This document shows, piece by piece, positions 6,672 to 34,134 of a stretch of 64,000 nt of DNA. The stretch is taken from positions 320,919 through 384,918 of the forward strand of contig JBFWZN010000004.1 of the NCBI GenBank assembly GCA_050185275.1, given 5' to 3'. A program made the translations under genes and the position numbers. The notes under the pieces are model-generated. The model was not told the DNA's origin and searched no databases. It saw only the letters and a program-made list of their open reading frames with translations. Positions within the stretch are counted from its first letter, which is position 1, and every line of letters begins with the position of its first letter. This DNA is from Vicinamibacterales bacterium (GTDB lineage Bacteria; Acidobacteriota; Vicinamibacteria; Vicinamibacterales; UBA2999).

Positions 6672-6688
6672 GGTGGTCTCCTGCGGCC

Positions 6689-14954: not shown

Positions 14955-15051
14955 GCCTCACGTGCCGGTTCAGCCGCGAGCGGCGCTCGCACCCCCGTCG
15001 GCCACCCAGCTCTGCCCGCCCCGCTCGCCGGGCTGCAGCGGCTCGTTGGAC
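14955..15051 (-). repeat. attC (site 16), core site degenerate
   Basis: Minus R'' GTCCAAC ... R' GTGAGGC; internal arms ttcagccgcgagcggcg / cgctcgccgggctgcagcgg resemble site 1. Confidence 0.6.
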
Positions 15052-15986: not shown

Positions 15987-16076
15987 GCGTAACGCCTGGC
16001 GATGAGCCGCGCTCGGAGCGCGGGAACGTGGCGCGGGCGAGCGCCCCCACGCGTAGGCTCCACCGCCTTGTCAGGC
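15987..16076 (-). repeat. attC (site 15), inverse core degenerate
   Basis: Minus R'' GCCTGAC (holds the TGA stop of the HicB remnant) ... R' GTTACGC; 3' arm gcgtaggctccaccgcc resembles subfamily B sites. Confidence 0.6.
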
Positions 16077-16235
16077 ATCGATGCTGATGAACTGACTCGT
16101 AGAGCTTGGCTGAGGGACCGGCTGGCCTCCCTCCCGCATTCCCTCGATGTGAAGTTCGACTGCCTCTCGCATCAGCGACTCCACTTCCTGTTGGCTCTCA
16201 CCCAGGTCACCGTCGACCGGACGGCCAGGATCGAC
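16071..16235 (-). pseudogene. HicB-family antitoxin remnant (N-terminal ~25 aa missing)
   Basis: Own translation: ...PGRPVDGDLGESQQEVESLMREAVELHIEGMREGGQPVPQPSSTSQFISIDA, the HicB/UPF0150 C-terminal pattern; no start for a full-length protein; abuts the stop of ORF 16237..17100 in another frame. Confidence 0.45.
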
Positions 16236-16236
16236 G

Positions 16237-17100
16237 CTATTCTGTGAATGCGGATTCGGCTCTCTGGCGCTTGTCCGGGTCTTGCGTCCCTCTCACGTGA
16301 TTCCATAGCTTTGTCTTCAGGGCATTCGGTACTTCTTTCAAGCCCCCGGGGCGTTGCTTCCTAAACGACCATCCTCCGAACAGGCGCGCAGCTCCCTCCG
16401 TTTGTGCGGAGGTCACGCTGGACAACTCGAAGGCCTCGACGAGGCTCCTGGTCGGATACGCAAGGAGGAGCTTTTCGGTTGCCATCTCGTAGAACGGGAC
16501 GCCTGACCAAGGACCCGCTCCTGAACCAAACCATTCGAGCAGGGCACGAATGCGTTTCGGTTCATCTGGCAGCCCCCGTTCAAGAGCGCCCTCCAGCATT
16601 TCAACATCCACCTCCCCAGGGAGTCGTAAGGCCTCTGCCCAGAGCGGGACGATCGCCTCCGGCATCGCGGCCAGCCATCTGTCCCAGTTGCGCTTCTGCT
16701 GCTCCTTCTGAGCCAGCATCCCTCTGACCTCGTCTCGAGGATCAGACATTCCACGGCTCTCGAACCACGATGCCCACTTCTCTACGTCGCCGATGCACAC
16801 GTCGCTGTCCCACAGCGAACAGCGCACCGTCAGGCCATGGTGGCTCGTCAGCTGTACGGGTTTACCGCGGCCCTCGTATAGATAGATGGCAGGCGAGCCG
16901 ATGCACATGCAGTGCAGCCATTCGTCTGGCGGCTCAAGGACCAGACTCCTCCTCAGATCGTCGATGTCTTTGCGATCGGTCGACTCGAACAGCGTAATCG
17001 CAGTGTCCCTCGGGTCCTCCTTGACCACGATCCTCACTGCCCTGGCCAATACACCGTCGAGCTCCGCGAGAACAACAGGCTTCTCCTTCTGCCTGGTCAT
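16237..17100 (-). CDS. Hypothetical protein (cassette 15)
   Basis: Track ORF trimmed to ATG 17100 with AGGAG 6 nt upstream; no domain recognised. Confidence 0.6.
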   Translation of the reverse strand: MTRQKEKPVVLAELDGVLARAVRIVVKEDPRDTAITLFESTDRKDIDDLRRSLVLEPPDEWLHCMCIGSPAIYLYEGRGKPVQLTSHHGLTVRCSLWDSDVCIGDVEKWASWFESRGMSDPRDEVRGMLAQKEQQKRNWDRWLAAMPEAIVPLWAEALRLPGEVDVEMLEGALERGLPDEPKRIRALLEWFGSGAGPWSGVPFYEMATEKLLLAYPTRSLVEAFELSSVTSAQTEGAARLFGGWSFRKQRPGGLKEVPNALKTKLWNHVRGTQDPDKRQRAESAFTE

Positions 17101-17203
17101 GATGTGCTCCTGGCGAACGCGATGCAGACACACGTGTTGCGGCCCAGCAGGACCGCGGCGTGATCCTATACCAGCCGCCGTGTGGTGCAGCTCCGGGCTA
17201 CTA

Positions 17204-17276
17204 GCCTGACGCCCACGCATCACCAGCGGCGCCTCCACGATCGCGCGAGCGCCGTCTGGTGCATGCGGTGTCAGAC
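17204..17276 (-). repeat. attC (site 14) with compensated GAC/GTC instead of AAC/GTT
   Basis: Minus R'' GTCTGAC (TGA stop of ORF 17271.. inside) ... R' GTCAGGC; arms gacaccgcatgcaccagacggcgc / gcgccgctggtgatgcgtgggcgtc pair well. Confidence 0.6.
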
Positions 17277-17642
17277 AGCTGGTTCGTGCGCTCCACGGAC
17301 ACGTACACGTCCCGGCTCCACGATCCAGAGTTGATGTTCGGCCCACTCTGCGGCCAAGACCGGAAGAACCCGGGCCACCAGCTGAAGCACCTGTCGTCGG
17401 CTGGGCTCGGCCGGTCGAAACACCACGATGCCGACGTACGTGCTCGGCGGATAGGTTCGGATATCGGAGAAATCGAGGTCGAGCGTAAAGAGCACGCGAG
17501 CCTCAGATTGGCAAGCCGCCCCGACCGTGGGATCGTCCGCGCCCGCGAGACCTTCGTCGTGAACGGTGTCGCAGATCCACCCGGCAGCGCGAAGGAGCTC
17601 GGCGGCCTCGAGCGGCACGTTCTCATCGAGCTTCGCGCGCAT
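17271..17642 (-). CDS. DUF5615-family (Mut7-C/PIN-like) putative toxin (cassette 14, gene 2)
   Basis: MRAKLDENVPLEAAELLRAAGW...; 9 nt downstream of a DUF433 gene, the usual pairing. Confidence 0.7.
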   Translation of the reverse strand: MRAKLDENVPLEAAELLRAAGWICDTVHDEGLAGADDPTVGAACQSEARVLFTLDLDFSDIRTYPPSTYVGIVVFRPAEPSRRQVLQLVARVLPVLAAEWAEHQLWIVEPGRVRVRGAHEPAV

Positions 17643-17651
17643 TCCCGGACG

Positions 17652-17879
17652 CTACGCAGGGAGGGGCAGGATCCGCTCTTGCGCTAGGTCGGCTGCATAC
17701 GCCAACGCCGCCTGAATGCCCTCCGCCGTCAGCGAGGGATAGCTCCGGATGAGCTCGTCGGCCGACAGCCCTTCCGCCAGATTCGCCAGGACCACAGCCA
17801 CAGGAATCCGCGTTCCGCGAATGCAGGCCTTGCCATGCAGCACAGCGGGGTCGACCGTGATGTGTTCGCGCCACTCCAT
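17652..17879 (-). CDS. DUF433-family putative antitoxin (cassette 14, gene 1)
   Basis: ITVDPAVLHGKACIRGTRIPVAVVLANLAEG is the DUF433 signature as recalled. Confidence 0.75.
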   Translation of the reverse strand: MEWREHITVDPAVLHGKACIRGTRIPVAVVLANLAEGLSADELIRSYPSLTAEGIQAALAYAADLAQERILPLPA

Positions 17880-17920
17880 GAACGTTTCCCGCTCGAAGGA
17901 TACCCGGAAGCCGTTCAGCT

Positions 17921-17992
17921 GTCTAACGACGCCACATCCGCCGCGCGCCGAAACGCATAACGCGGCGCGTCGGCTGCATTTGGTGGTTAGCC
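17921..17992 (-). repeat. attC (site 13)
   Basis: Minus R'' GGCTAAC ... R' GTTAGAC; 72 bp; plus-strand 3' arm cgcggcgcgtcggctgcatttggtgg (subfamily B). Confidence 0.85.
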
Positions 17993-18018
17993 AGACAGTC
18001 CCTCAGGTGCCGGCTGGC

Positions 18019-18633
18019 CTACGCCGGCGTGGACTGCGGCGGTCGAAGCATCGCCCAAGCCGGCGGTCCCCCTTTGCCGAGAGTCGCCTCCTCAAGGACG
18101 GCGAAGCCAAAGCGTTCGTAGAACGCCAGATTGCGAGGTTCGCTCGTCTCGAGATAGCACGGTAGTGACTCGCGATCGGCCAGGGCGAGCCCCTCGCGAA
18201 TGATTGCCGATCCGATACCCTGGCCGTGCAGTTCGGGATCGACGGCAACACCAAAGAGATACCAATGAGGCCCAGGAACCCGAGCCTTGTGGATCTTGTC
18301 CATCGCTTCGTTGGCCGCCACGAACCGGACGAAAGGCCCTAGCCCCGTGCGCAGCGGCACGCCGAGCATGCCAGCGCGAACCATCCCTGGAATCGTGATC
18401 CCCGGGCCTGGAGGGATCCAGACACATGCGGCCCTCGCGTCATGGGACGCTGCGATCCTTCCGTACCGCATGCCGTATTCGGCGAGAACGCGCATGAGTG
18501 CACGCGCCCCGGCAAGCCGCCCTGCCGCGTCTGGAAACACCCACGTGATCATCGGATCGGGCAAGAACGCACGCGCGAATGTCATGACCGCACGATCCAG
18601 CGAACCGCGGTCAAGCGGCTTGATGTCGGACAT
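18019..18633 (-). CDS. GNAT-family N-acetyltransferase (cassette 13)
   Basis: Block HGQGIGSAIIREGLALAD and C-terminal NLAFYERFGF. Confidence 0.8.
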   Translation of the reverse strand: MSDIKPLDRGSLDRAVMTFARAFLPDPMITWVFPDAAGRLAGARALMRVLAEYGMRYGRIAASHDARAACVWIPPGPGITIPGMVRAGMLGVPLRTGLGPFVRFVAANEAMDKIHKARVPGPHWYLFGVAVDPELHGQGIGSAIIREGLALADRESLPCYLETSEPRNLAFYERFGFAVLEEATLGKGGPPAWAMLRPPQSTPA

Positions 18634-18669
18634 CGAACGGCGCTCCCTTGGACACGTCGACTGTGGTCT

Positions 18670-18753
18670 GGCTAACGCGCAAAATGAGCCCCGCGCGTCG
18701 CGGCCATGATGGCCCAGACACGCGAGCGGGACGGCTCCATGTGGATGTTAGCC
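18670..18753 (-). repeat. attC (site 12)
   Basis: Minus R'' GGCTAAC (TAA stop of ORF 18748.. inside) ... R' GTTAGCC; 84 bp. Confidence 0.8.
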
Positions 18754-19260
18754 GCCGAGTCGTTTGCGAAGTCGAACTTCGAACAGTTCAGATCCGCCCA
18801 GTGTAATCGCCTTTGCGCTGCCGGGCTCGATGGCCAAGCCGATCGACTCGTAGAACGCGATAGCCTGCGCGTTGCTCTTCAACACCCACAGCGTGATCTC
18901 CGAAAGACCGGACGCATTCAAGTGTCTCTCCGCTTCGCGCCAGAGCCGTCGTCCTACGCCTCGGCGCCAGTGTGGAGGGTCCACGTGAACGGCCCAGACC
19001 TCCACGGTTGTCGGCAGGGCGTCCGAATCACGGCTCCGTGCGGCGCTGATCCCACCAAGCACCTGGCTCTCTTCCTCGACCACACAGGTCTCCGAAGCCC
19101 TTTGTTCAAGGTTCTGTCGCCAGAAGCTCTCCCGTTGCTCAACGGACAGCGAGTCCAGGACTGCCGACGAAACGATGCCCTGGTAGGCCACCTGCCACGA
19201 TTGGACGTGAATAGCAGCAATCGCCCGGGCATCTTCCAGTCTTGCTTGCCTAACACCCAT
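18748..19260 (-). CDS. GNAT-family N-acetyltransferase (cassette 12)
   Basis: MGVRQARLEDARAIAAIHVQSW..., block WRRGVGRRLWREAERHL, AIAFYESIGL. Confidence 0.85.
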   Translation of the reverse strand: MGVRQARLEDARAIAAIHVQSWQVAYQGIVSSAVLDSLSVEQRESFWRQNLEQRASETCVVEEESQVLGGISAARSRDSDALPTTVEVWAVHVDPPHWRRGVGRRLWREAERHLNASGLSEITLWVLKSNAQAIAFYESIGLAIEPGSAKAITLGGSELFEVRLRKRLGG

Positions 19261-19274
19261 GTGACTCGAGGTGC

Positions 19275-19346
19275 GGCTACCGCTGCGTTTCAGCCGCGGC
19301 GTCTCATAACCGCCAGACCCCCGACGGCTGCAAACGCCCGTTCAGT
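19275..19346 (-). repeat. attC (site 11), both core heptamers off-consensus
   Basis: Minus R'' ACTGAAC ... R' GGTAGCC; arms gcgtttcagccgcggcg / cgacggctgcaaacgc are typical of subfamily A. Confidence 0.6.
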
Positions 19347-19353
19347 TGCGTAA

Positions 19354-19827
19354 TCATGTGGACCACGCGAAGGGGCGAAACACCTCGATGAAGCACAACA
19401 CGAAGCCAACCGCCGCAACGACAAGGTGCAAGGAGATCCACCCCCAGTTGAGCCGCCACTCGTATAACCTCGGGAACTCTGCCTTCGCGATCTTGTGTGC
19501 TTCCTCGCGGAGAACCTGAGCGCGACCGTTCAGAACGCCCGAATCAAGCTCCTTGCGGATGAGGCTGGCTCTGCGCATGTGATCCTTGAAACGTTCGTAG
19601 TGCTTAGCACTCAGAACTGCTCCAAAAAGTCCAAACAGCGTCAAAGCTACAGTGTAGGGAAGGTCGCGGACATCCACGGACTTGTCTGCGAGCGCCAGAT
19701 TCGCAAGAGCCGCGGTACTGGCAATCACGAAAGCCGTCATCACACTACGTTGGGTCTCGTGATGCCGGCCATGCACACAATTCTCGTTGTAGAGAGCGAG
19801 CCACACTTGGGCTTCTTCGCTTTTCAT
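19354..19827 (-). CDS. Small membrane protein, unknown function (cassette 11)
   Basis: Trimmed to ATG 19827; three hydrophobic segments (AFVIASTAALANLALA, YTVALTLFGLFGAVL, WISLHLVVAAVGFVLCFI). Confidence 0.55.
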   Translation of the reverse strand: MKSEEAQVWLALYNENCVHGRHHETQRSVMTAFVIASTAALANLALADKSVDVRDLPYTVALTLFGLFGAVLSAKHYERFKDHMRRASLIRKELDSGVLNGRAQVLREEAHKIAKAEFPRLYEWRLNWGWISLHLVVAAVGFVLCFIEVFRPFAWST

Positions 19828-19879
19828 GATCGCCTCGGCCAACCAATCGCTGCCTTCGACTCCAGCCCGTCCCTTCTCC

Positions 19880-19939
19880 GCCGAACGGGCCGGTTCAGCG
19901 GCGGCGTCTCGTGCCGTCCGCTGCAACCGGTGGTTATGC
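19880..19939 (-). repeat. attC (site 10), 60 bp
   Basis: Minus R'' GCATAAC ... R' GTTCGGC; arms ccggttcagcggcggc / gccgtccgctgcaaccgg. Confidence 0.7.
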
Positions 19940-20030
19940 GTCTTCGTCGCTCTCCTTCTTCAACCTCCGCCTGGCAGGTTTGTTCTCAACGTCGAGCATG
20001 CCAAGGGCGCACTCCACAAGGACACCGCCC

Positions 20031-20104
20031 AACTAACGACCGCGGTTTAGCCGCGGTGCGCTCAGCATGCACCGGTGCGCCGTCGGCTGCAATCGCTGTT
20101 AGAT
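20031..20104 (-). repeat. attC (site 9)
   Basis: Minus R'' ATCTAAC (TAA stop of ORF 20099.. inside) ... R' GTTAGTT; 74 bp; arms gcggtttagccgcggtgcg / gcgccgtcggctgcaatcgc. Confidence 0.8.
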
Positions 20105-21037
20105 GGCCATTCTCGCTTGGTTTGTGATGCCGAACGGGACGTGCACGGATGGCACGGTTCCGGCCGCGGGGTCGATGTGGCCGATCTGATCGTCAAAGAA
20201 GATGTGAGGCTTGAACTCAGAGAGAATCCTTGTCTTGTCCATACCGCCGAGGAAGAAGGTTTCGTCCACCTCGATGCCCCATGCGCGTAACGTGGTCACC
20301 AGACGTTTATGGGCCGGCGCGTTTCGTGACGTGATGATCGCTGTTCTGATTACCGGGGTATAGCCGTTGTCTTGTTGAGCGCGCGCCAGTTCTCGCTGGT
20401 GTATCTTGCCGATCTCTTCGACCAAGGGCTTCAGAGGCCCTGGGTTATGCGGCTCAAGTGCCTTGAGCGCTTCTGACTGATGAAACCCGCTGAGACCCTC
20501 TATCTGGAAGACGCGTTCCGCTTCGTCGTCGATGATAACGCCGTCGAAGTCGAACGCAACGCGTAACTCACGGTCGTTCGGATCGTCGACGTAGTTCGAC
20601 GCGAGAACACGCCCTGCAGGCAAACCCGCCATCACCGCCTCCTTGACATTGGCCTCATCTGCCGACAGAAACAGACAGGCGTTAAATGACTTCACGTACC
20701 GAAAGGGGTCACGGCCTCGCACAAACGCCGCACGGCTAATTGGCAGGGTATAGTGCTCGATCGAGTTCATGACACGAAGCCCCGTGTCGGGATCGTTCCG
20801 AGAGAGGAGCACGACCTCAACGGGCTCGTCGCTGCGCTCTGGGTCGTTCAGGCTCAACAGCCGCTTGATGAACGGAAATGCGACACCGGGCTGGAGAATC
20901 TCGGCATCACGCGCGCGCTGGTACTCCCGGTACGCTTCTTCACCCTTCGACAGGAAGACCTCGTGGGACTGGCTGAGGTCGAAGAGTGCACTTGATGCGA
21001 TGGCGACGACGCGTTTTTCATGAATCGGGTATGGCAT
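20099..21037 (-). CDS. 5'-nucleotidase, cN-IA-like bacterial family (PF06189-type) (cassette 9)
   Basis: Trimmed to ATG 21037; collinear blocks SRNDPDTGLRVMNSIEHY, ITSRNAPAHKRLVTTLRAWGIEVDETFFLGG, KPHIFFDDQ. Confidence 0.8.
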   Translation of the reverse strand: MPYPIHEKRVVAIASSALFDLSQSHEVFLSKGEEAYREYQRARDAEILQPGVAFPFIKRLLSLNDPERSDEPVEVVLLSRNDPDTGLRVMNSIEHYTLPISRAAFVRGRDPFRYVKSFNACLFLSADEANVKEAVMAGLPAGRVLASNYVDDPNDRELRVAFDFDGVIIDDEAERVFQIEGLSGFHQSEALKALEPHNPGPLKPLVEEIGKIHQRELARAQQDNGYTPVIRTAIITSRNAPAHKRLVTTLRAWGIEVDETFFLGGMDKTRILSEFKPHIFFDDQIGHIDPAAGTVPSVHVPFGITNQARMAI

Positions 21038-21057
21038 CGGCGCGCCAATACTAGTCC

Positions 21058-21130
21058 ACCTAACGCGCCGCTTCAGCCGCGGCGGCTCATGATCGCCCCG
21101 GCCGCTGTCGGCTGCAACCGGATGTTGGGC
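21058..21130 (-). repeat. attC (site 8)
   Basis: Minus R'' GCCCAAC ... R' GTTAGGT; 73 bp; arms ccgcttcagccgcggcgg / ccgctgtcggctgcaaccgg. Confidence 0.85.
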
Positions 21131-21177
21131 AGCCGCCACGATTCAGGCATATCCTGCCGCAGTTCCCGCCCTACGGG

Positions 21178-21699
21178 TCACTTGACGAAGAGCTCCATCG
21201 CCACGTCATCTAGGTATTGGCTTGGTCCGATCTTGATCCGATGCCGCCAACGCCCCATCTCCGTGAAACCCATCCTGAGGTAGAGCGCCTGCGCCGGTTC
21301 GTTCGACGATCGTACGTGAAGCTCGATCTTCTCGACGGTCTGGGCGGCCATTGCCCATTCGATCAATCGACTGAGCAGCTGTCGCCCGACACCCTGACGT
21401 TGCCAGCCTGGGTGAGTTACCAGGGTCACATGCACAACGTGGCGAGTGGCAGCGAGTGGCAGTGGATCGAGTACTCCGTGGCCGACGACTTTCCCCTGCG
21501 TCTCTGCGACGAGATAGCACCCGTTGTCGGCGCGACCGAGCGCCGCGATCTTCCGCGCAAATCCCTCGTCCGTCAGCTCCGCTGGCTGCGACACCAGAAA
21601 GCCAGGCTTCGCCGCAATCGTTCGTTCGGCTTGCGCCAGCACGGACGCGTCCTCGATGCGAGCCGGCCGGATCGAGATTCCTCTGTTCAACGGATTCAC
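21178..21699 (-). CDS. GNAT-family N-acetyltransferase (cassette 8)
   Basis: GTG start; block WQRQGVGRQLLSRLIEWA and ALYLRMGF. Confidence 0.85.
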   Translation of the reverse strand: MNPLNRGISIRPARIEDASVLAQAERTIAAKPGFLVSQPAELTDEGFARKIAALGRADNGCYLVAETQGKVVGHGVLDPLPLAATRHVVHVTLVTHPGWQRQGVGRQLLSRLIEWAMAAQTVEKIELHVRSSNEPAQALYLRMGFTEMGRWRHRIKIGPSQYLDDVAMELFVK

Positions 21700-21716
21700 G
21701 GTTTCACGACTTGTCT

Positions 21717-21788
21717 GCCCAACGTGCCGAATGGGCCGCGCGCCATCGTCGGCTCATGCGGCGCGTCGGCTCCATTTGGAGGTTAGGC
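21717..21788 (-). repeat. attC (site 7)
   Basis: Minus R'' GCCTAAC ... R' GTTGGGC; 72 bp; subfamily B 3' arm gcggcgcgtcggctccatttggagg. Confidence 0.85.
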
Positions 21789-21810
21789 AGCAACACACCC
21801 TGACACCCGC

Positions 21811-22536
21811 CTACACCTTGAGATGCGCGTGAAAGAAGGTTTCGATCCGTCGGCGCGCATCCGCGTTCGCCTGGGCGTCGTATGTCGTGTGTGACCACCG
21901 TGCCAGCGCGGTGAGGATCCACGGACCTTCGCCGCGACCGTGATCGTTCATGAAACCGTGACCGACGCCGGCGTACTCCTTCACGTCGTGCATGATGCCA
22001 TGTGATGTGAGCAGATCCTCAAGTCGCGCGGCGGTGCCCTTCAACGTGGGATCCTTTCCGCCGTAGCTCGCGACGATGGGGCACGCATCGGCGAGGCGCC
22101 GCCAACCGTCTTCGGTCGCCCCACCGTAATTCACAGCTGACGCCCCGTAGCCGTGCCCTGGCGCCAATGCCAGCGCCAACCCACCACCCAGACAGAATCC
22201 AATGACGCCCACGCGCCCCGTGCCCAGTTCGTGCGCCGCGAGCCACGCCTGCACAGCCGCGAGTTCGTCGAATGCAGGCCCACGAGTACCGCGCGCCAAG
22301 TCCCGCATTGTGCGGACGAGACACCGAAGGTGCCCGCCCCAATGGAACAGGTCCGGGGCGGCCGCTAGATAGCCGACGTCCGCGAGCCATCGGGCCTGAT
22401 TGCGCAAGTCCTCGGTCATGCCGAGTGCGTCGTGGACAACGACGACACCTGGCCACGGGCCATCATCGTCTGGTGTCGCCACAAAGGTGGGGATCTCGCC
22501 CCCGGAGCCGCCGGGAATCCTGGAGAGATGGTCCAT
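21811..22536 (-). CDS. Dienelactone hydrolase family protein (cassette 7)
   Basis: ATG 5 nt after core site; GFCLGGG nucleophile motif, C-terminal GVGHGF. Confidence 0.85.
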
Positions 22537-22541
22537 TGTCT

Positions 22542-22630
22542 GCCTAACGCTGGCGGTTCAGCCGCGGCGGCTCTCTTTGGTTGGCTTGGTCACAACCTGC
22601 GCCGCCGTCGGCTGCAACCGCTGGTTAGCC
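22542..22630 (-). repeat. attC (site 6)
   Basis: Minus R'' GGCTAAC ... R' GTTAGGC; 89 bp; the 5' arm GGTT[G]CAGCCG[A]CGGCG has two extra bases relative to its partner, as in classical attC. Confidence 0.9.
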
Positions 22631-23304
22631 AGTCGGCCGCCAACTCGCATGTACGGGGCGAATCGACGGCGCGACTCCTCGAACTGCTCGGTAAACCACA
22701 GCATAGCGTCGGCCCACTCTCTCGACAGCTGCGCCCGATCAGAATCTGGGGCTTCTCGCATCGCATAGAGAGCATGAAGCTGTACGGCCCTCCGATAGAG
22801 TTCCCGCAGGTAGCCGGCCAGATGATCGTCGAACAGGAACAGAGCCTCGTCGGTCTGCCGAGCGAACTCGAAGATTTTATCAAGCTCCAGGCGTCTGCCG
22901 TTCACGGCCTCGCGAAGAAACGCCTGCGTTGCACGATAGGCCGGAATTCGTCGGTCGAAGAGCTCAAGAGAGATGACCGGTCCTCGCGTCGTTTGGCCAC
23001 CGCTATCGGACCAGGTCAACGACGTGGCCATGTGCTCGTAGAGCATTCCGCGGTAAGTCAAGAGTTCATCGACGGTATGTCCCTTGGTCTGCCGAGACTT
23101 GGCGTCGTATCTGGCGTGATGTTTGGTACAGAGCCACGCTGCATTCGCCTCATCCGCGTTCGTCGCATCGCGGTCCACGTGGGCGATCTGACCCTCTTTC
23201 TCTAGCGTATCGCCATCTAAGCCGTAGCAGAGCGCGCACCGTCGCCTGCTGGCGACCAACACCGCGGCTACAACTGCCCCAGAAAACGGCCTTCTATTCG
23301 CCAT
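22558..23304 (-). CDS. HNH-like nuclease-domain protein with uncharacterised C-terminal domain (cassette 6)
   Basis: N-terminus CALC...IAHVDRD...NAAWLCTKHHARYD fits a CxxC/H-N-H zinc-finger nuclease pattern; the ORF reads through R'' and stops inside the attC. Confidence 0.55.
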   Translation of the reverse strand: MANRRPFSGAVVAAVLVASRRRCALCYGLDGDTLEKEGQIAHVDRDATNADEANAAWLCTKHHARYDAKSRQTKGHTVDELLTYRGMLYEHMATSLTWSDSGGQTTRGPVISLELFDRRIPAYRATQAFLREAVNGRRLELDKIFEFARQTDEALFLFDDHLAGYLRELYRRAVQLHALYAMREAPDSDRAQLSREWADAMLWFTEQFEESRRRFAPYMRVGGRLANQRLQPTAAQVVTKPTKESRRG

Positions 23305-23325
23305 CGCGTGATGTGGTCTTGATCT

Positions 23326-23442
23326 GGCTAACGACGCGCCGCGCGACGCCGCGTGATGCGCGGCGCGAGCGCAGAATGAAATGGCGCGCTCGCGACGGCG
23401 CCGCGACGACGTGTCACGGTCCGCTGCAACCGCTGGTTATGC
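23326..23442 (-). repeat. attC (site 5), long (117 bp)
   Basis: Minus R'' GCATAAC ... R' GTTAGCC; GC-rich central palindrome. Confidence 0.8.
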
Positions 23443-23460
23443 GGCATTCGCGATGACCTC

Positions 23461-23916
23461 TCAACCTGACCTGGCACTCTGCGGAAGATAGTTAACCAAC
23501 TTCTCAGGGAACAGGCACTGGCTGCCCTTCACGAATTCGCTCACCGGACGCCACGCCACGTGGTTCGTGACGCCTCCGTCCACAAACGAAGACGTGATCG
23601 TGGGCTCGAGCCCACGCTCCAACAGTTCTGCTTCAAACGCGAAAACAACCTCGTGACCGCGCGCTCCCTCATGGCTATACAGGTTCTCGAGAACGCACAA
23701 CTGCTTGACGCAGCGGACATGCCTTCCGATCTCCTCGAGAACTTCACGCGCGACCGCTTCCTCGGCCGACTCGCCAAACTCGATTGCTCCCCCAAGCGGT
23801 CGCCATCCCTTCACGGCGCCAGCATCGTCTTTCACGGCCATCACGAGCACGTCCGTGCCCTGATAGATGAGCGCGACGGCAATCACTCTGATTCGCTGCG
23901 GAGGACGCCACTGCAT
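23461..23916 (-). CDS. NUDIX hydrolase (cassette 5)
   Basis: Complete Nudix box GAIEFGESAEEAVAREVLEEIG (Gx5Ex7REUxEExGU). Confidence 0.85.
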   Translation of the reverse strand: MQWRPPQRIRVIAVALIYQGTDVLVMAVKDDAGAVKGWRPLGGAIEFGESAEEAVAREVLEEIGRHVRCVKQLCVLENLYSHEGARGHEVVFAFEAELLERGLEPTITSSFVDGGVTNHVAWRPVSEFVKGSQCLFPEKLVNYLPQSARSG

Positions 23917-23986
23917 CAGATCTGAGACTCCATGCGGAATAGTGATTGTGGGCTCCTCACGAAGCTACGCCGACCCCAACCATGAC

Positions 23987-24055
23987 GCATAACGGTAGGC
24001 ATCACCAGCCGCGCGGGACGATCCCGTGCGCGGCCTGGTGCATGCCGCGTTAGGC
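23987..24055 (-). repeat. attC (site 4)
   Basis: Minus R'' GCCTAAC (TAA stop of ORF 24050.. inside) ... R' GTTATGC; arms ggcatcaccagccgcgc / gcgcggcctggtgcatgcc. Confidence 0.85.
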
Positions 24056-24958
24056 ATCTTCTTCGACGCCATCAACGACGGACACCCGCCCCCGCTTCAG
24101 CGCGGTATCAGCAGGGAAGTACTGCGCGTACAACTGCGCGATCCGCCAAGCAATCGAGTTCTTGTTGATCTCGAAGCCGCCTCCGGCAACAAGGATGGGC
24201 AACGGCAGCGAATAGCGCCCGCCGTCGCAGCTTACATACGGAATGCGTCGGAGCACCGTTGTTCCGTAACGTAGCTCGACTTCATAGCTGTGGGCCGACG
24301 GATCCGGAAAGACCGTGGTCCAGGATTCCCGAAACGATGGGTTCAAGGTGGCACCATGCACGACCGTGAACTCCGGAAAGTCCCTGTGATACAGATACGT
24401 CTCGCCACCGACCTTTACCCAGGCATCTGGGTTCTCCAGAAGGCGGTATGCGCGACGAAGCGGTGGCAGTCCGATGCCGAAGCGCTCCCGCCACGCCAGC
24501 TCGGTCGCGGCCTCGGACGCGCACTCTCGGAGAGGACAGTTGGTGTCCCCGATTCGGGTGTACACCACGCCAGCCCTGATGGTCTGGTCTCTATGGGTCT
24601 TGTCGGCTAGCAGGAAGAAGGGCTTATCTGGTCGATTCTCGATCGTGAGAACGTCAATCTCGTGACCATTCAAGGTGTGCGTTGAGATCGCGACTGTCGG
24701 AAGACGATTTAGCCGAGAGGAGCGCAGCAGGTCCTGAATCTCGGCGCCTCGACGGCGATTCTGATCCTCCTCGATGCCGATTATGTCACCGTTGTTGGCT
24801 ACGCCAAACACTAGGAAGCGCCGGCTCTCGGCCCATGCGTTGGTCAAGCACAGAATGTCATGCAGTAACGACAGCGTGTCCTCGTGGTGGACCCGCTTGA
24901 AGTCAAGCCACTCGCACTCGGTTGTTTCGACTAGGGCGTCGATGTCCATGTCCAGCAT
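24050..24958 (-). CDS. AlbA_2 / Schlafen-like putative DNA-binding protein (cassette 4)
   Basis: ATG immediately follows core site GTTAGGC; N-terminal ETTECEWLDFKR resembles the AlbA_2 (PF04326) E..LEFK motif; remainder unassigned. Confidence 0.6.
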   Translation of the reverse strand: MLDMDIDALVETTECEWLDFKRVHHEDTLSLLHDILCLTNAWAESRRFLVFGVANNGDIIGIEEDQNRRRGAEIQDLLRSSRLNRLPTVAISTHTLNGHEIDVLTIENRPDKPFFLLADKTHRDQTIRAGVVYTRIGDTNCPLRECASEAATELAWRERFGIGLPPLRRAYRLLENPDAWVKVGGETYLYHRDFPEFTVVHGATLNPSFRESWTTVFPDPSAHSYEVELRYGTTVLRRIPYVSCDGGRYSLPLPILVAGGGFEINKNSIAWRIAQLYAQYFPADTALKRGRVSVVDGVEEDA

Positions 24959-25030
24959 GCCTAACGACCCCAACTCAGCCGCGCATCGCCACGCGACTCG
25001 CGGCGCGTCGGATGCATTTGGAGGCTAGGC
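24959..25030 (-). repeat. attC (site 3), inverse core mutated
   Basis: Minus R'' GCCTAGC (AAC changed to AGC; provides the TAG stop of ORF 25025..) ... R' GTTAGGC; subfamily B arm. Confidence 0.75.
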
Positions 25031-25579
25031 ATCGGATTCTACCCGTTCGAGAATCAACTGGCTCACTTCATGCGGACGCCACTTGAAGTGATACTCGATT
25101 AGCTCTTCCTCGAGGCCGTCAATGGGCTGAGGCTGAGCCGTGGCCCTGGCAAACAGAGACAGTGTCTGTCGATGGTTAGCGATGGCCTCGCCAGCGGACT
25201 CGAACTCACACCAGCGACCGGGGTGCCACGTGCCGACGCTGCTCAGCACTTTGACGTAGATCGACATGGCGGGCGCGTGCCCGAGCCGCGCGAGCACCTC
25301 GCGCAGGCACACGCCCTCGACGACCACTAGCTCAGTGAGTTCGCCTAGACGCGCACCCAACTCAGGGTACCGGATCCGGTCAAGGTAGCCGCCCTGGTTC
25401 CTTTCCAGGAACTTGTCGACCTCGACATACTCGCACGATACCGCCTGGGCGAGGGCGCTTGCGAGGGTCGATTTCCCCGAGCCGTCCCAGCCGTCAACGG
25501 CGATCAGGCCATGCGGCTCGGTGTCGCGGACGAGCCGGACGACCGTGTCGAGGTCTCTCACGACCGTTGGCGTATTCAC
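25025..25579 (-). CDS. P-loop NTPase / small kinase-like protein (cassette 3)
   Basis: GTG start; Walker A VDGWDGSGKSTLASAL. Confidence 0.7.
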   Translation of the reverse strand: MNTPTVVRDLDTVVRLVRDTEPHGLIAVDGWDGSGKSTLASALAQAVSCEYVEVDKFLERNQGGYLDRIRYPELGARLGELTELVVVEGVCLREVLARLGHAPAMSIYVKVLSSVGTWHPGRWCEFESAGEAIANHRQTLSLFARATAQPQPIDGLEEELIEYHFKWRPHEVSQLILERVESDA

Positions 25580-25596
25580 TCGTGTGCGTTCCGTAT

Positions 25597-25671
25597 GCCT
25601 AACGACCGCAGTTCAGCCGCGGCGCGCTCAGGATGCCACCGCGCGCCGTCGGCTGCAACTGCTGGTTAGCC
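25597..25671 (-). repeat. attC (site 2)
   Basis: Minus R'' GGCTAAC (TAA stop inside) ... R' GTTAGGC; 75 bp; arms gcagttcagccgcggcgcg / cgcgccgtcggctgcaactgc. Confidence 0.9.
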
Positions 25672-26538
25672 GGCATCGTTCAAGACCTGAATTCGACCTG
25701 TGCTCAGTTGGTAGGCGAAAGTCTCCATCAAGAAGTCAGCGAGTGTTTTGGCTGCGTTTACGGCGAGCCTCGCGTGGTGCCGTTCCGGCCGATAGCTCCG
25801 GGCGTGAGCATCGCCCATCTTGTTCCGCATGGGTGCGAGGCCGGAGACGATGCTCGACAGACCGGCCAATACCTGCCGCAGGCTGTCGGCGATGTCGGTT
25901 CTTGCGGGATCGAGGTTGAGTAGCTTCTGGACACGTTTGTAGAGCCTTGGCAGATCGCCGTCGTACGCCGGTGGCTGCTGGACCAGCCGGGCTTCGATGG
26001 CAATCAGGACGGCCTCGACCAGCGAGCGTGCATTCGTTATGGCTCCATCGTAGTCGCCGTCGCGAAGCTTGCGGTCGCACTTCGACAACTGCTCGTCGAT
26101 AAACTCGTGCGATGTGGGATCAAGGTGGCTGAGCTTCGCCTCAACGGCTACTAGCTGCTCGCCCAGACGGCGCAAGCGATAGTGGCCCGCGCTGAGTACG
26201 AGCTCAAGGCCGTCGTACGCCAGGTACTTGTTGAGGTATTCGACCGCGCTCGACGCTTCAAACGGTGTATCGAAGAACCGCGGTGGGTATACCGAGCCCT
26301 CAATTGCGTCGGTCAGCTGGGGCGTCTCGTTTAGCTGCTCGAGCTTGGCCTCCGCGTACGCCCACCTCGACGGAAATCCTTGGCCGTACGTTTCGTTGAA
26401 GCCGAACTCGTTGAAGAACTCGACCAGCTTCGGGCCGCTCAGGTAGGGCGCCAGCGGCCCGGCGTTCGTGTCGAACTTGTCGCCCGTAATGACGTGCTGG
26501 ATGGCGGAGATAGTGCGCTTCGAGATCTTGGGCGACAC
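25666..26538 (-). CDS. Abi_C / HEPN-domain abortive-infection-like protein (cassette 2)
   Basis: GTG start; C-terminal LAPMRNKMGDAHARSY...HHARLAVNAAKTLADFL = Rx6H HEPN-type motif of the Abi_C (hypoth_ymh-like) domain; N-terminal ~150 aa unassigned. Confidence 0.7.
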   Translation of the reverse strand: MSPKISKRTISAIQHVITGDKFDTNAGPLAPYLSGPKLVEFFNEFGFNETYGQGFPSRWAYAEAKLEQLNETPQLTDAIEGSVYPPRFFDTPFEASSAVEYLNKYLAYDGLELVLSAGHYRLRRLGEQLVAVEAKLSHLDPTSHEFIDEQLSKCDRKLRDGDYDGAITNARSLVEAVLIAIEARLVQQPPAYDGDLPRLYKRVQKLLNLDPARTDIADSLRQVLAGLSSIVSGLAPMRNKMGDAHARSYRPERHHARLAVNAAKTLADFLMETFAYQLSTGRIQVLNDAG

Positions 26539-26573
26539 GGATCAGGCTTCGCGGGCTAAGGCGCTCGTTGTCC

Positions 26574-26675
26574 GGCTAACGTTCTGCCGCTCAGCCGCGA
26601 GCGGCGGGGTCGAAGTGTACCGCACCGGCGACCCGCGTACGCCCGCCGCTCGTCGGCTGCAGCGGCGGGTTAGGC
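26574..26675 (-). repeat. attC (site 1, integrase-proximal)
   Basis: Minus R'' GCCTAAC (TAA stop inside) ... R' GTTAGCC; 102 bp. Confidence 0.85.
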
Positions 26676-27134
26676 GTCCGCACGCAACGCGACCCGATAG
26701 CGGCACTTGCGCCGCTCGCCCTCGAGGTACATGTCGGAGTCCGGTGGAAGGTCCACTGTCTCGACGAGTTCCGCGCCGGCGAGCTCGCAGGTTCGCCTGG
26801 ACGCCCAGTTGTCCGGGTTGCACGTGATCCACAACTCGGTCATGCCGTGCGCGCGCGCGAGCGGCAGCAGCAGTCGCAGGCTGCGCGACGCGAAGTGGTG
26901 GCCACGATGCGCCGGGCGCACCCCGTACGCAATCTGACCGCCGACGTTCACCATGGCAGGCGTCGCGCCGAGCCGGAACTCGATGTCGCCGGCGACCTCG
27001 CCCGCGACGACTAGGTCGAAGCGATAGGCGGGCACCCACGCTCTCGCGGCATCCCCCGGGAATCGCTCTCGCAGACGCAGGTGCAACTCGCCATCGAGAA
27101 GCGTGCCTGGGTCGCGAAACTCGGTACTGATCAT
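26670..27134 (-). CDS. GNAT-family N-acetyltransferase (cassette 1)
   Basis: ATG 7 nt after the first GTTAGGC junction; HRGHHFASRSLRLLLPLARAHG and WASRRTCELAGAELVE fit a GNAT core. Confidence 0.75.
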   Translation of the reverse strand: MISTEFRDPGTLLDGELHLRLRERFPGDAARAWVPAYRFDLVVAGEVAGDIEFRLGATPAMVNVGGQIAYGVRPAHRGHHFASRSLRLLLPLARAHGMTELWITCNPDNWASRRTCELAGAELVETVDLPPDSDMYLEGERRKCRYRVALRADA

Positions 27135-27141
27135 CCCGTGC

Positions 27142-27448
27142 GCCTAACTACTTACTAACTGGACGTCCGGTACGTCCCCTCCCAGGCTTCGCCCCCCTGA
27201 GCTACACCGCGTGCCCATCGGCCGCAAGCTGTTGAGTGGGCGGAGTCTAGCACTCCGAAGTGGGAGCGACAACGGATTCAGTCACCGCGGCGCGGTGAGC
27301 CGGCCATAGCTGCGGGGCCGGTCAGGCGTATGAGGGAGCTGGTGTGGGGCGTCTTCAGGCGGAAGTACCAGCCGGAGAAGGGATTAGGGCTTGAGAAGGT
27401 CGTATCGGGAGGATGTGTATACCTGCGAAGCCCGCGCGGTATAGCGGG
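27142..27448 (-). other. Candidate attI / cassette-promoter region (non-coding spacer between intI remnant and first cassette)
   Basis: Minus strand ends ...CCAGTTAGTAAGTAGTTAGGC|gcacgggATG; no credible ORF; several short hairpins (e.g. ggacgt-ccggt-acgtcc at 27161..27177). Confidence 0.4.
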
Positions 27449-27790
27449 TCAGAGCCGGTCTGCGGGGCTTCGCACGCCTAATCCACCCCGGTTCAGAACG
27501 TGGGTGTAGATCATCGTGGTGCTGACGTCGGCGTGACCGAGCAATTCCTGCACCGTCCTAATGTCGTAGCCGTCCTCGAGCAGGTGCGTGGCGAACGAGT
27601 GTCGAAACGTGTGGCAACTCGCCCGCGCCGCGATGCCGGCCTGCCGCACCGCCCGCATCAGCCTCGCCGGTGCATGCCGTGATCGCCCGTCACGCGGAGC
27701 CGCCCCTACTCGCGGCGCCGGCGACAGGGTACGAGCGTCGTCAGGACTTCCGGCGTGCGGAGCCGGAGGCTCATGGGCCGGCCGGCGGGG
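27449..27790 (-). pseudogene. intI: Integron integrase (intI) C-terminal remnant
   Basis: Last 72 aa [69 protein letters not shown] carry tyrosine-recombinase box II (HxxR, LLGH, catalytic Y) plus the IntI-type tail GVRSPxDxL; upstream similarity fades; the next gene ends at 28152, so no room for the N-terminal ~200 aa. Confidence 0.85.
27654..27785. repeat. Direct repeat unit 1 (period 243 bp) overlapping the intI remnant
   Basis: cgcatcagcctcgccggtgcatgccgtgatcgcccgtcacgcgga...cggcgtgcggagccggaggc recurs at 27897 with a few substitutions. Confidence 0.85.
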
Positions 27791-27896
27791 CGCGGCCGTC
27801 TCACGGACCGACTGCGACGCACGCCGACACGGCTCGCCTGAAGTCGTGGCGACGCGACGACCCGCCGCGAGTCCGTGCCCCACGATCCGTGACGCT

Positions 27897-28028
27897 CGCA
27901 TCAGCCTCGCCGGTGCGTGCCGTGATCGACCGTCGCGCGGATCCGCCCCTACTCGCGGCGCCAGCGGCAGGGTACGAGCGTCGCCAGGACTTCCGGCGTG
28001 CGGAGCCGGAGGCCCGTGGGGCGGCCGC
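27897..28028. repeat. Direct repeat unit 2 (copy of 27654..27785)
   Basis: Near-identical ~130 bp; encodes a second ...[35 protein letters not shown] segment in the same frame. Confidence 0.85.
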
Positions 28029-28095
28029 GCCCCGCCGGCCGGGGGCAGCAGCGGAAGGCGCATCTGCCGGCTGCGAACGGAGGTCCCGGCGGCGT

Positions 28096-28129
28096 ACAAA
28101 GCAAAGGGGCGGACCCGAAAGCCCGCCCC
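28096..28129 (-). terminator. Rho-independent terminator of the SnoaL-like gene
   Basis: Minus strand GGGGCGG-gctttcgggt-CCGCCCC followed by TTTGCTTTGT, 22 nt after the stop at 28152. Confidence 0.7.
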
Positions 28130-28151
28130 TCGTCGTGCATTGCGGCTTAGG

Positions 28152-29072
28152 CTAGCGGCGGGTGATGCCGTTCGGGAAGGCCACGTCCCAGTGCTCCTGG
28201 ATGAGGCCGTCGTCCACGCGCACCATGTCGAACCGGTAGTACACCGTCTGGCGCGCGCTGTTGCCCGGGTCCGGCTCCGTCCGCTGATCGAACTTCAGGT
28301 AGAAGTTGCCGGTGATGAGTTCGAGCGTCGGCGGCGTCACCCACTCGTCCTTGATCGGCTGCTTCTCGCGGTTGCTGAAGTTCTTGATGAAGTTGTCGCG
28401 CCCGCCCGGCACGTTCATGTTGTGCTGCATGTAGCCGGGCGCCATGGCCTGCATCGCCAGCTCCGTGTGCCCGTACTGCAGGATGTCCTTGAACTCGACG
28501 ATGCCCAGGCGGCGCGTCTCCTGCTCGCGCGGGCTCAGGTTCGTGGAGTGGTTGTACACGCCGCCCCCGAGCAGCTTCGGACCGAAGTCGGTCTGCACCG
28601 TCCGCCGCGCCCCATCCCAGTGCTCCACGATCTTGCCGTCGGCAATCCGGAAGAGATCCAGGGTGTTGTACTTGAAGATCTTCGCGGGCTCGGTCGGGTC
28701 GATGATGAAGTTGGCCCACATCAGGAACACGTACTCGTTCTTGGCGAACTCCACCTCTGGCCGCCCGGCGCGCTGCTCCGTGAAGTTCTGCAGCAGCTCG
28801 GGCCGCGTCCGCAGCGTCTGCACGAAGCCGTCGCGGCCCGCCGGCACGTTGGGATTGCGCGAGATGAAGTTCTCGGGCATGTAGTGCGACGCGATGTCGA
28901 GGTTGCCCCGCTGCATGATGTCGCGCCACCAGTCGTGCACCAGCTGCAGGTTCGCGCGCTCGGCCGGATTCATGGCATAGGACGTCTGCTGCGGCACCTG
29001 GTACTGCGCCGAAGCGGGCGCGGCCAGCCCCACGCACAGGAACAACGCGGCCGGAATCAGTGCTCTTCTCAT
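28152..29072 (-). CDS. Secreted protein with two tandem SnoaL/NTF2-like domains
   Basis: Trimmed to ATG 29072; signal peptide [23 protein letters not shown]; duplicated blocks [11 protein letters not shown] and [11 protein letters not shown]. Confidence 0.7.
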
Positions 29073-29350
29073 CTCTATTCCCCCAGAACTGTCGGAATCC
29101 ATCGGAACGCGGCGCATTATAGCCAATCCCTCCCGCCCGGCTCGCATGGGCGCAGGCGACGGCGCGCGGCCCCACTTGTCGCACCGCTGTCGCGTCGTCG
29201 ACAGGCGGGCGCAACACCTGGACCGTACAACCAGTGGTGCGGACAGCCGCGTGGTGCTGTACGCGCACTGCGGTCAGACCGCTCGGGTGGCGTCGGAGCG
29301 ACGCTCGCTCGACGACATCCCACACGATCTCACGCCAGGAGAGACTCCAG

Positions 29351-30856
29351 ATGAATACGTTTCCCAGCCGCGCGAGGCTTGCCGTTGGCGGCATCCTGCT
29401 CGCGGGCGCCGTCGCGTCGGCCAGTGGCCTTCGCTTTTCCGACTTCACGCCCCTGGTGGCCTCGGCCGGCCCGACGGCCGATGAAGCCATGCCTGTCACG
29501 TTCGGTAATCCTGCGTTCGAACAGGCGTCCATTGCCGACCGGACCTTCCAGCTGGGCGCGGGCGTGCCCAACTCGGGCAACTGGGACATGCTCACCGTCA
29601 ACGAGACGGGCCGGCATCGCGGCCGCTATCTCTTCACGGTGTTCGAGACCGGCCAGGCCGGTGTGCAGCGGCACGACCTGAAGACGGGCCTTGTCGAGAC
29701 CGTGTGGTACAGCCCGACGCCCGGCGGACACGTGGCCTTCGACGCGTCGTACTGGACGCCGTGGGGCACCTTCATCACGGCGGAAGAGAGCTGGTCGACG
29801 GCCGCCGGAGGGTCCACGAGCCCCTACGGACGACTGTTCGAGCTGAAGAATCCGCTCCAGGCCCCCGGGATCGTGGGCGTGCCGACCGCGGCCAGCAACC
29901 TGAACGCTGACTTCGTGCACCAGAACGTCATCCCCCGCACCTCGCACGAGGGCATTCAGTTCGACAGCGCCGGGAACATGTACTTCATCGATGAGCTCAA
30001 TGGCGGCAACGTCTACAAGTACACGCCGGCGGCAAGCATGAAGCGGGTGAAGGCTGGACGGGCCGACTACTTCGCGGCGGGCCAGACCTTCGTGCTGCGC
30101 GTGGGAGACGGCAACACGCCGAACGCCACTGGTGCCTACCAGTGGGTGCCCTTCACGGACGGGACGGGCGCGGGCCTTCCGGGCGCGCTCACGATTACCG
30201 ACACCAACGGCGTGACGTCAGTCGACGCGCGGAACACGACGAACCTGCCGGCATTCAAGGGTACGGACTATCAGCGGCCGGAGGATCTCCAGATCCAGAT
30301 CGTGCGCGGACGTGAGTACCTGTACATGGCCACGACCACGACGAACGAAGTCTATCGGCTGGATCTCCGCAACCAGGTCATCTCGGTCTTCGCCGATCGC
30401 AACACCCTGGACCTGGCGACGGGTGCACCCGTGGGTGTGGCACTCACCAGCCCCGACAACCTCGCCATCGACCACGAGGGCAACATCTACGTCATCGAGG
30501 ACCAGCCCGGTGGCGTCAGCGACGACATCTGGTTCGCAAAGGACCGGAACCGGGACGGCGATCTGCTCGACGCGGGTGAGGGATTGGCGCGTTGGGCGTC
30601 GAACGGCACACCCGGGTCGGAGTTCACCGGCCTCTATTTCGACCCCTTCAACAAGGGTCGCGCCTGGGTCAACATCCAGCACCCCTCGAGCGGCAACGAC
30701 CGGACCATCGAGATCCGCCTTCCGGGCCGCCGGCACGGGCACGACCACGACGGCGACCACTCGGAGTGCGACGACGACGACCACCGTAACGATCACCGCG
30801 ACGGCGACCGTCGGGACGACCGACGGGGTGACGACCGGTACGATCGGCGGCGCTAG
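29351..30856 (+). CDS. Secreted PhoX/DUF839-like beta-propeller protein with His/Asp/Arg-rich C-terminal tail
   Basis: Trimmed to ATG 29351 (GGAGAG upstream); signal peptide; blocks WTPWGTFITAEE, HEGIQFD, RPEDLQI, PDNLAIDHEGNIYVIEDQ. Confidence 0.7.
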   Translation: MNTFPSRARLAVGGILLAGAVASASGLRFSDFTPLVASAGPTADEAMPVTFGNPAFEQASIADRTFQLGAGVPNSGNWDMLTVNETGRHRGRYLFTVFETGQAGVQRHDLKTGLVETVWYSPTPGGHVAFDASYWTPWGTFITAEESWSTAAGGSTSPYGRLFELKNPLQAPGIVGVPTAASNLNADFVHQNVIPRTSHEGIQFDSAGNMYFIDELNGGNVYKYTPAASMKRVKAGRADYFAAGQTFVLRVGDGNTPNATGAYQWVPFTDGTGAGLPGALTITDTNGVTSVDARNTTNLPAFKGTDYQRPEDLQIQIVRGREYLYMATTTTNEVYRLDLRNQVISVFADRNTLDLATGAPVGVALTSPDNLAIDHEGNIYVIEDQPGGVSDDIWFAKDRNRDGDLLDAGEGLARWASNGTPGSEFTGLYFDPFNKGRAWVNIQHPSSGNDRTIEIRLPGRRHGHDHDGDHSECDDDDHRNDHRDGDRRDDRRGDDRYDRRR

Positions 30857-31043
30857 CGAATCCGCCGAGTCAGACACCCCAGCGTACCTGCAGGACTCCG
30901 CGGGTACGCTGGGGGTCGGCCCGCGCACGGCGTCCGACACTCAGCGTTTCGCGACAGGCGGCCCAGGCCCAGCGGTCAGCCAGGACGGAACAGGCGACAC
31001 GCACCGGCGACCTGGGGTAGGCTCTCGCCCTGAGGCGCGAGCC

Positions 31044-31748: not shown

Positions 31749-31822
31749 CCACCCGCCTCCGGGAGCCCGCTGGCCCGTCGGCGGTGGACCATCCGCTACG
31801 TGGCCTCTCTAGGTGGCCGGCG

Positions 31823-33973: not shown

Positions 33974-34134
33974 GCGCGCGCTCTCCAACCCGGGTGTCAA
34001 CGTCGTGAAGGCCGACCGCCGAGCCGGATCATCATCGCTCACCTCGGCCCCGGCCTGCCACGGCCGGCGCGACCCGCCTCCCCGATTGTGCCCGGACGCG
34101 AACGACCGTATGATGCACGCGCTCGTCAGCCATC

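Follow-up and report, generated by a model that had tools for sequence, protein, structure and literature searches.

A chromosomal integron in a Vicinamibacterales bacterium with a co-oriented integrase gene probably decapitated by a deletion into an upstream structured repeat

The locus consists of an integron cassette array headed, on the same strand, by an attI-like site, a promoter-like element and the 3′ end of an integron integrase gene (intI), behind which lie one and a half units of a structured repeat, a terminator-like hairpin and a gene for a SnoaL-like secreted protein (Table 1). It is part of a 64,000 nt stretch of DNA, the whole of which was analysed and is referred to here as the window (Vicinamibacterales bacterium, GCA_050185275.1, JBFWZN010000004.1 positions 320,919-384,918). 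The host, an environmental bacterium of high GC content (69.5%), was recovered from a landfill metagenome as a metagenome-assembled genome (MAG) of 4.4 Mb in 19 contigs that is 100% complete by markers. We refer to this genome as G000, to a genome of the same genus as G001, to other related genomes by further G numbers and to contigs by C numbers.

Table 1. Features at the head of the integron, in coordinates of the window
Feature	Position	Strand	Basis
Weaker 16th attC site	14955-15051	-	Covariance model R1
Cassette array, at least 15 attC sites	15987..26675	-	Covariance model R1, E < 1e-3
First cassette, GNAT gene	26670..27134	-	
attI-like site, ..CCAGTTAGTAAGTAGTTAGGC (..AAGTAGTTAGGC block)	27142..27165	-	Conserved in relatives
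Promoter-like element TTGTCG, 17-nt spacer, (TGc)TAGACT, within palindrome GGAGTGCTAGACTCC	27244..27272	-	Conservation
Open-reading frame, 216 codons	27449..28099	-	Matches TIGR02249 and PF00589 partially
intI 3′ remnant, 67 codons (AVRQAGI...GVRSPADRL) and TGA stop	27449..27652	-	TIGR02249, tblastn
Repeat half unit 'A' (copy 1 of the 135-nt repeat), 'B' partner lost	27650..27784	+	Direct repeat, family alignment
Complete repeat unit B+A, holding copy 2 at 27893-28027	27777..28039	+	nhmmer, BLAST, folding
Terminator-like hairpin downstream of the SnoaL-like gene	28104..28131	-	Near-identical hairpins at other repeat copies
SnoaL-like secreted protein gene, chromosomal flank upstream of the former intI	28152..29147	-	PF07366, PF12680

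The original prediction for this locus had described an N-terminally truncated integrase, and had proposed comparing it with integrase profiles and searching the rest of the genome for an intact copy. The 216-codon open-reading frame matches the integron integrase family TIGR02249 (profile length 315, curated cut-off 265 bits) with 121.8 bits, below the cut-off and over positions 243-315/315 only, and the PF00589 tyrosine-recombinase domain over 109-169/172 only; judged by these matches, it is a remnant of a member of the TIGR02249 family and not itself a member. Comparison of 13 intact IntI proteins from related genomes with the 64-kb window (tblastn) gave homology from 27652 down to the stop codon at 27449-27451, and none to IntI residues 1-242. 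Nor would there be room upstream for the N-terminal part, as had been predicted, the SnoaL-like gene ending at 28152 and its hairpin occupying 28131-28104. The predicted survival of the last ~70-110 codons holds at its lower end, with ~67-73 codons being true intI sequence, whilst the figure of 110 arose from low-complexity similarity inside the repeat. Box II (HTFRHS, containing HxxR), LLGH, the catalytic Tyr (IYTH) and the GVRSPADRL tail could all be read in the remnant as described, but the box I Arg, the Lys and the IntI-specific insertion are missing, which leaves the catalytic set R-K-H-R-H/W-Y incomplete. A tyrosine recombinase cannot recombine DNA once its active-site Arg and Lys are gone, and the remnant, lacking these residues and the IntI-specific domain, is therefore unable to recombine: the locus reads as an ordinary intI pseudogene, N-terminally truncated and inactive.

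The closest intact IntI is that of G021, with 92.5% amino acid identity over the 67 residues; the remnant differs from the intact G021 gene at 39 nt, 30 of them third codon positions, and has acquired no frameshift or stop. As comparable remnants on contig C15 of G000 and in G001 (described below) are riddled with indels, the truncation in the window would appear comparatively recent. A six-frame search of the 19-contig assembly found neither an intact intI nor homology to IntI residues 1-242 and, apart from the remnant, returned only Xer-like recombinases scoring <81 bits and without the IntI insertion, so that the suggestion of an array either frozen or dependent on an integrase in trans stands as reasonable. 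An intact intI, or the missing 5′ part, could sit in unassembled or unbinned sequence, since the genome is a MAG and contigs C5, C14 and C15 end in the repeat. Metagenome depth reaches 250-340 over 27449-27570 against 17 in the flanks, and word depth over the conserved intI 3′ end (27449-27631) is 15-20x that of the flanks in runs X1, X2 and X23; many members of the landfill community thus seem to carry closely related IntI, and these are potential trans donors.

The attC sites were detected with a covariance model (R1) built on ten hand-picked attC sites and applied at E < 1e-3, which was used instead of regex and fold-based scans that proved too strict or too noisy. All 15 sites lie on the minus strand (five of them outside the training set), and the array has the make-up of an integron array, in that attC sites with R''/R' cores and a hairpin each follow a cassette ORF, with the ORF stop codons in or near R''. 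The remnant, the attI-like site and the attC sites share the minus strand, and the 3′ end of intI faces the array, just as predicted. A putative recombination point, GTTAGGC at 27148-27142, lies directly before the first cassette, and the attI-like block AAGTAGTTAG(G/C)C is common to G022, G018, G021 (which has an intact intI) and two platforms on C15. Both this block and the promoter-like element described next are conserved 3′ of the intI stop in the window, in G022 and in G021 and G014 with their intact genes.

The promoter-like element between attI and the intI stop codon is kept in five platform copies of G000 while their flanks diverge, and it is also kept in G001 and downstream of intI in G021, G014 and G022. 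A generic consensus promoter scanner made no call on this element; from its conservation, it is a candidate cassette promoter (Pc) or operator. A short palindrome (GGAGT-GCTAG-ACTCC in the window, 27244-27262) contains the -10-like TGCTAGA(C/A)T in its loop or arm, and the palindrome arms differ among genera yet stay complementary (C15, G001, G021, G022, G014). The palindromic block could accordingly be an operator or a structural part of attI, instead of or besides a promoter. We also considered whether the intI remnant is kept because it carries Pc and rejected this, as the conserved block lies 3′ of the stop codon and is still found at platforms from which intI has disappeared.

The layout of the locus, with intI co-oriented with its cassettes, is the inverted-integrase arrangement of Treponema integrons, as the original prediction had recognised. 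Eight of the 11 relatives with an intact intI (G023, G014, G021, G035, G043, G025, G004 and G015) likewise have attC sites downstream on the same strand, and the intI-to-attI spacer of the window contains motifs common to these co-oriented relatives, whilst the classical divergent layout occurs in two or three (G012, G006 and, weakly, G016). Comparison with these relatives indicates that the co-oriented layout is native here. Within this one bacterial family, G012 (L032) and G006 (L016) are divergent and G021, G014, G023 and others co-oriented; the IntI C-termini of both kinds are >85% identical despite the difference in layout, which suggests that, among close integrases, intI has been inverted with respect to attI.

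Beyond the remnant, the 216-codon frame runs through a direct repeat (27650-27784 and 27893-28027; 135 nt, 92% identical), whose spacing of 243 nt, or 81 codons, causes a 16-residue peptide to occur twice in frame. The ~130-bp repeated segment had been noticed in the original prediction and is real; what does not hold is the accompanying view that the remnant sits within duplicated intI sequence, for the repeat is non-coding, occurs at non-integron loci and is found in 11 genera. Its unit measures ~260 nt (about 243-300) and has three parts, a variable G/C spacer that contains sub-repeats of 36 nt and the two halves B and A, so that the window holds 1.5 units, namely an orphan A half and one full unit. 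That the repeat is non-coding follows from its periods, which are not multiples of three, and from its flat codon-position GC (0.83/0.74/0.72, compared with 0.66/0.49/0.82 in the intI remnant). BLAST with 27640-28150 located other copies in G000 on C15 (4-408, reversed; 6494-7010; 24021-24179; and a five-unit array at 33238-34585), on C10 (107396-107657) and in the first 300 nt of both C5 and C14, with C5, C14 and C15 having contig ends inside the repeat. A census of 194 genomes from 41 genera of the bacterial family (BLAST, nhmmer) found the repeat in 24 genomes and 11 genera, at 85-89% identity within the genus and 70-80% in other genera. Rfam covariance models gave no match to the repeat at E <= 1 over 27100-28300, and no match to RAYT (PF01797) was found in the G000 genome. 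RNA-seq runs containing the repeat were looked for as well, and none was found. Derivation of the A half from intI, raised by a weak tblastn extension to residue ~195 and an NF011946 alignment to ORF residue 126, was dismissed, as the same segment forms part of a conserved hairpin at non-integron loci and in other genera and bears no coding signature. On this comparative evidence, the 135-nt repeat is best assigned to a pre-existing dispersed family and is not intI-derived.

An alignment of 17 repeat copies from seven genomes contains invariant blocks in which GCACGCCG pairs with CGGCGTGC (outer stem) and CGCCGCGAGT with ACTCGCGGCG (inner stem); two small hairpins lie within. In this nested hairpin of ~190 nt, 98.3% of cells are standard pairs and four pairs exhibit compensatory double changes within single sequences, against a mean of 0.4 in shuffles (0/500 shuffles reach 4), and sliding the partners abolishes the pairing of the stems. 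Conserved G·U pairs favour the window plus strand as the likely folding strand.

The flank beyond the repeat has counterparts elsewhere. Near-identical terminator-like hairpins adjoin the repeat at C15:7101-7133 and C10:107346-107384, and contig C23 of G001 is orthologous to window 27985-32190, the SnoaL flank (91.9% identity over 4.2 kb), and ends inside the repeat beside the SnoaL ortholog. As the SnoaL flank of G001 also runs into the repeat, the placement of the repeat beside this gene predates the split of the two species. An 82% identical homolog of the SnoaL-like protein was found among GTDB genomes in an 'Acidobacteria bacterium' MAG (CANIAI010000099.1), where the locus has no shared flanks, no attC and no intI and is not an orthologous intact locus. 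A second, smaller SnoaL-like gene adjoins the repeat at C15:468-920.

At the junction itself, homology to intI extends as far as 27652, and that to the repeat sets in at 27650-27655. At every other repeat locus the A half is preceded by a B half; the first A half in the window is therefore a truncated unit, with a breakpoint that falls inside both intI and the repeat. Such a breakpoint would be the signature of a deletion.

Similar junctions recur in the genome. Contig C15 (34.6 kb) carries three further copies of the promoter-like/attI region, each abutting the repeat on the intI side. The copy at C15:6127-6490, 65.6% identical to window 27146-27512, retains ~63 frameshifted nt of intI and has attC downstream; that at C15:32877-33238 retains ~30-40 nt of intI (~33006-33238), again with attC downstream, whilst at C15:23907-24179 nothing is kept upstream of the promoter-like block. 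The platforms of G000 thus form a graded series in which 201 nt, ~63 nt, ~30-40 nt and 0 nt of intI are retained, with the same promoter-like block throughout. C15 as a whole resembles an integron graveyard (regions 4-408, 6127-7010, 23907-24179, 28692-28752 and 29598-34585), with six attC sites and, at both contig ends, repeat arrays in inverted orientation; an extra copy of the promoter-like block, at 28692-28752, has no detected adjoining repeat. The first C15 platform has an ortholog in G001 (C330), where intI codons ~248-313 remain, with internal deletions and an adjoining repeat, in front of different cassettes. Between G001:C330 and G000 C15:289-10769 the flanks are 87-92% identical and the cassettes between them have no detectable similarity, and both loci have a truncated intI only. 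For this second integron, either cassette turnover came first and the truncations followed independently, or an integrase was at work in trans.

Other genomes exhibit the same association. G021:C29 has the order repeat, intI codons 216-286 and attC sites, and in G011 (three loci) and G198 (one or two loci) the repeat precedes attC by 0.7-4 kb, oriented in the same way. The repeat also occurs in front of intact intI genes scoring above the TIGR02249 cut-off, 169 nt upstream in G193:C38 and ~305 nt upstream in G003:C131, in both cases with the B end of the unit facing intI as in the window, and the far side of the repeat in G003 is occupied by a hairpin and a convergent gene. Across about 50 repeat loci whose context was examined in seven genomes, ~13 are at integron heads, the remainder being ordinary intergenic sites beside unrelated genes. 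For elements present in a few copies per genome, this enrichment is far above chance, and may reflect either common descent of the platforms or independent association. The repeat is not required for intI loss, as 3′ intI remnants without a repeat occur in G022 and G018.

Fragments of intI are very common in the bacterial family: only 23/61 genomes have a match above the cut-off, and many relatives carry either 5′-only pieces ending at profile positions 250-267 or 3′-only pieces starting at 242-262 (G018 has complementary pieces, 1-250 and 248-315, on separate contigs). These ends may reflect a preferred breakpoint or detection bias. A recombination hot spot at intI codons ~242-267 was considered, given the 3′ remnants of four genomes, which begin at 242-258, and the 5′ fragments, whose ends lie at 250-267, and was not adopted: fragment starts are continuous over 174-262, codon ~243 opens a highly conserved block, and detection bias explains the pattern.

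Were the remnant, the repeat units or their number the product of mis-joining or collapse, the true locus might contain a complete intI. The source is a MAG, three contigs end within the same repeat and two 31-mer nodes are common to other copies, but we consider such an artefact very improbable. Logan unitigs, made by an independent assembler from two landfill-metagenome runs (X1, X2), match 26900-28209 exactly from end to end, their depth being 17-26 against ~17 in the flanks; one (27506-27685) contains the intI/repeat junction internally, and another (27656-27963) runs from the orphan A half into the full unit. The only non-unique 31-mers of the region start at 27654-55 and 27934-36, where the unitigs break, and all others are unique. 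This support is at contig and unitig level, with the number of units and the array after the junction resting on the assembler's read pairing. Two alternative joints in the unitigs, 27272→27808 and 27984→28103, occur at genome-like depth and are built like paralogous loci, C15:23907-24179 among them; we read them as probably being those loci, not variants of the window locus. Like junctions are also present at other loci and in the assemblies of other genomes.

A real junction could still have another cause. The repeat might be an invasive element that inserts at, or expands into, intI, its own activity having caused the truncation; this would agree with the nearly constant relative orientation of the ~13 of ~50 loci that lie at integron heads, with the varied positions of the junctions (codons ~243, ~216, ~248-258 and ~295, close to the stop codon, or ahead of the promoter block) and with the G000 repeat copies being 77-92% alike whilst the platforms they abut are 65-72% alike. 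Yet no locus has a 5′ fragment of intI on the far side of the repeat, two genomes have the repeat outside an intact intI, neither a transposase nor a RAYT accompanies the repeat, about three quarters of its copies are in ordinary intergenic sequence, and the junction in the window falls mid-unit, as the end of a deletion would and the terminus of an element would not. Invasion of this kind is therefore unlikely, though less so than an assembly artefact. The last ~200 bp of intI might instead be under selection, as a cassette promoter or as a small C-terminal protein, rather than being a neutral leftover, and the remnant is indeed free of stops and frameshifts and 92.5% identical to intact IntI, with 3′ remnants from near codon 242-258 recurring in G022, G018 and G001. 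We give this little credence, since the conserved promoter-like block is located downstream of the intI stop codon and is still present in platforms where little or nothing of intI is left, indels have degraded the remnants of G001 and C15, and a protein without the active-site Arg and Lys could not recombine; the repeated finding of starts near codon 243 may reflect a detection limit, because the most strongly conserved portion of IntI begins there.

The reading we prefer, and consider likely, is that a sedentary chromosomal integron of the co-oriented type has its head in the window, its intI having been decapitated by a deletion into the upstream repeat. The ancestral order on the minus strand would have been the SnoaL-like gene, the terminator hairpin, one or more repeat units of ~260 nt, a leader, intI, the promoter-like element, attI and the cassettes. 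A single deletion from the middle of a repeat unit to intI codon ~243 would have eliminated the leader along with the 5′ three quarters of the gene, joining the leftover 67 codons, in frame and by chance, to 1.5 repeat units; this chance fusion would account for the 216-codon open-reading frame and for the apparent '243-bp duplication'. The promoter-like element, attI and at least 15 attC sites would have been kept, and the cassettes, probably still expressible, could be moved only by an integrase from outside, because the assembly encodes none. We infer a deletion rather than another rearrangement as the simplest history, reconstructed from paralogous or heterologous loci: a search for an orthologous locus with an intact intI found none, the G001 ortholog breaking at the repeat.

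It is also possible, and we propose it tentatively, that the ~260-nt hairpin repeat is a lineage-specific element functionally tied to integron platforms, either as a regulatory or boundary element (RNA or folded DNA) upstream of intI, or as a selfish element that prefers this position, with its arrays deleting integrases. If so, recombinogenic repeat arrays would repeatedly turn active integrons into frozen arrays that retain their promoter. An intI pseudogene beside an array is an expected stage of integron decay and adds little on its own. The wider meaning of the locus lies in the concrete route it suggests from a complete integron to an integrase-less cassette cluster, the origin of such clusters being still debated; in the retention of the promoter-like block along the whole graded series, which points to where selection still acts; and in a conserved, structured repeat family, absent from Rfam, that is enriched at integron heads of several genera with a fixed orientation and might regulate or destabilise the integrons of this lineage as one of their components.

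Amongst known systems, the inverted integrase layout has been described for Treponema integrons (PMC3607928), and the window resembles the Treponema denticola type in having its integrase remnant, attI-like site and attC sites on one strand, an assignment made by layout. It differs in that the integrase here is a 67-codon stump, that the host is not a spirochaete and that the bacterial family also holds classical divergent integrons (G012, G006). A second comparison is with CALIN, clusters of attC sites without an integrase, of which 15/279 adjoin intI pseudogenes (Cury et al. 2016, PMC4889954) and for which loss of intI has been proposed as one origin (PMC4889954). By the definition in that study the locus is a CALIN with a pseudogene, since it combines two or more attC sites with the lack of a functional intI in the vicinity and with an intI-like pseudogene no more than 10 kb away (PMC4889954); it shares with these clusters its many attC sites and the recognisable C-terminal intI pseudogene alongside. 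Unlike them, the mechanism of loss is here legible as a deletion into the upstream repeat, the attI-like site and the promoter-like block are retained, and the genome carries three further, more eroded platforms. The repeat in turn recalls REP/BIME elements, being non-coding, palindromic, GC-rich, located downstream of genes, sometimes in tandem or next to terminators, dispersed, and marking the ends of rearrangements. However, its unit is ~260 nt with a nested hairpin of ~190 nt rather than 20-40 nt, the genome has no RAYT (PF01797), the repeat core is conserved in 11 genera, and it is strongly enriched at integron heads. The array is thus an ordinary 'frozen' integron, an example of a known state, and its unexpected part is the repeat family found at integron heads.
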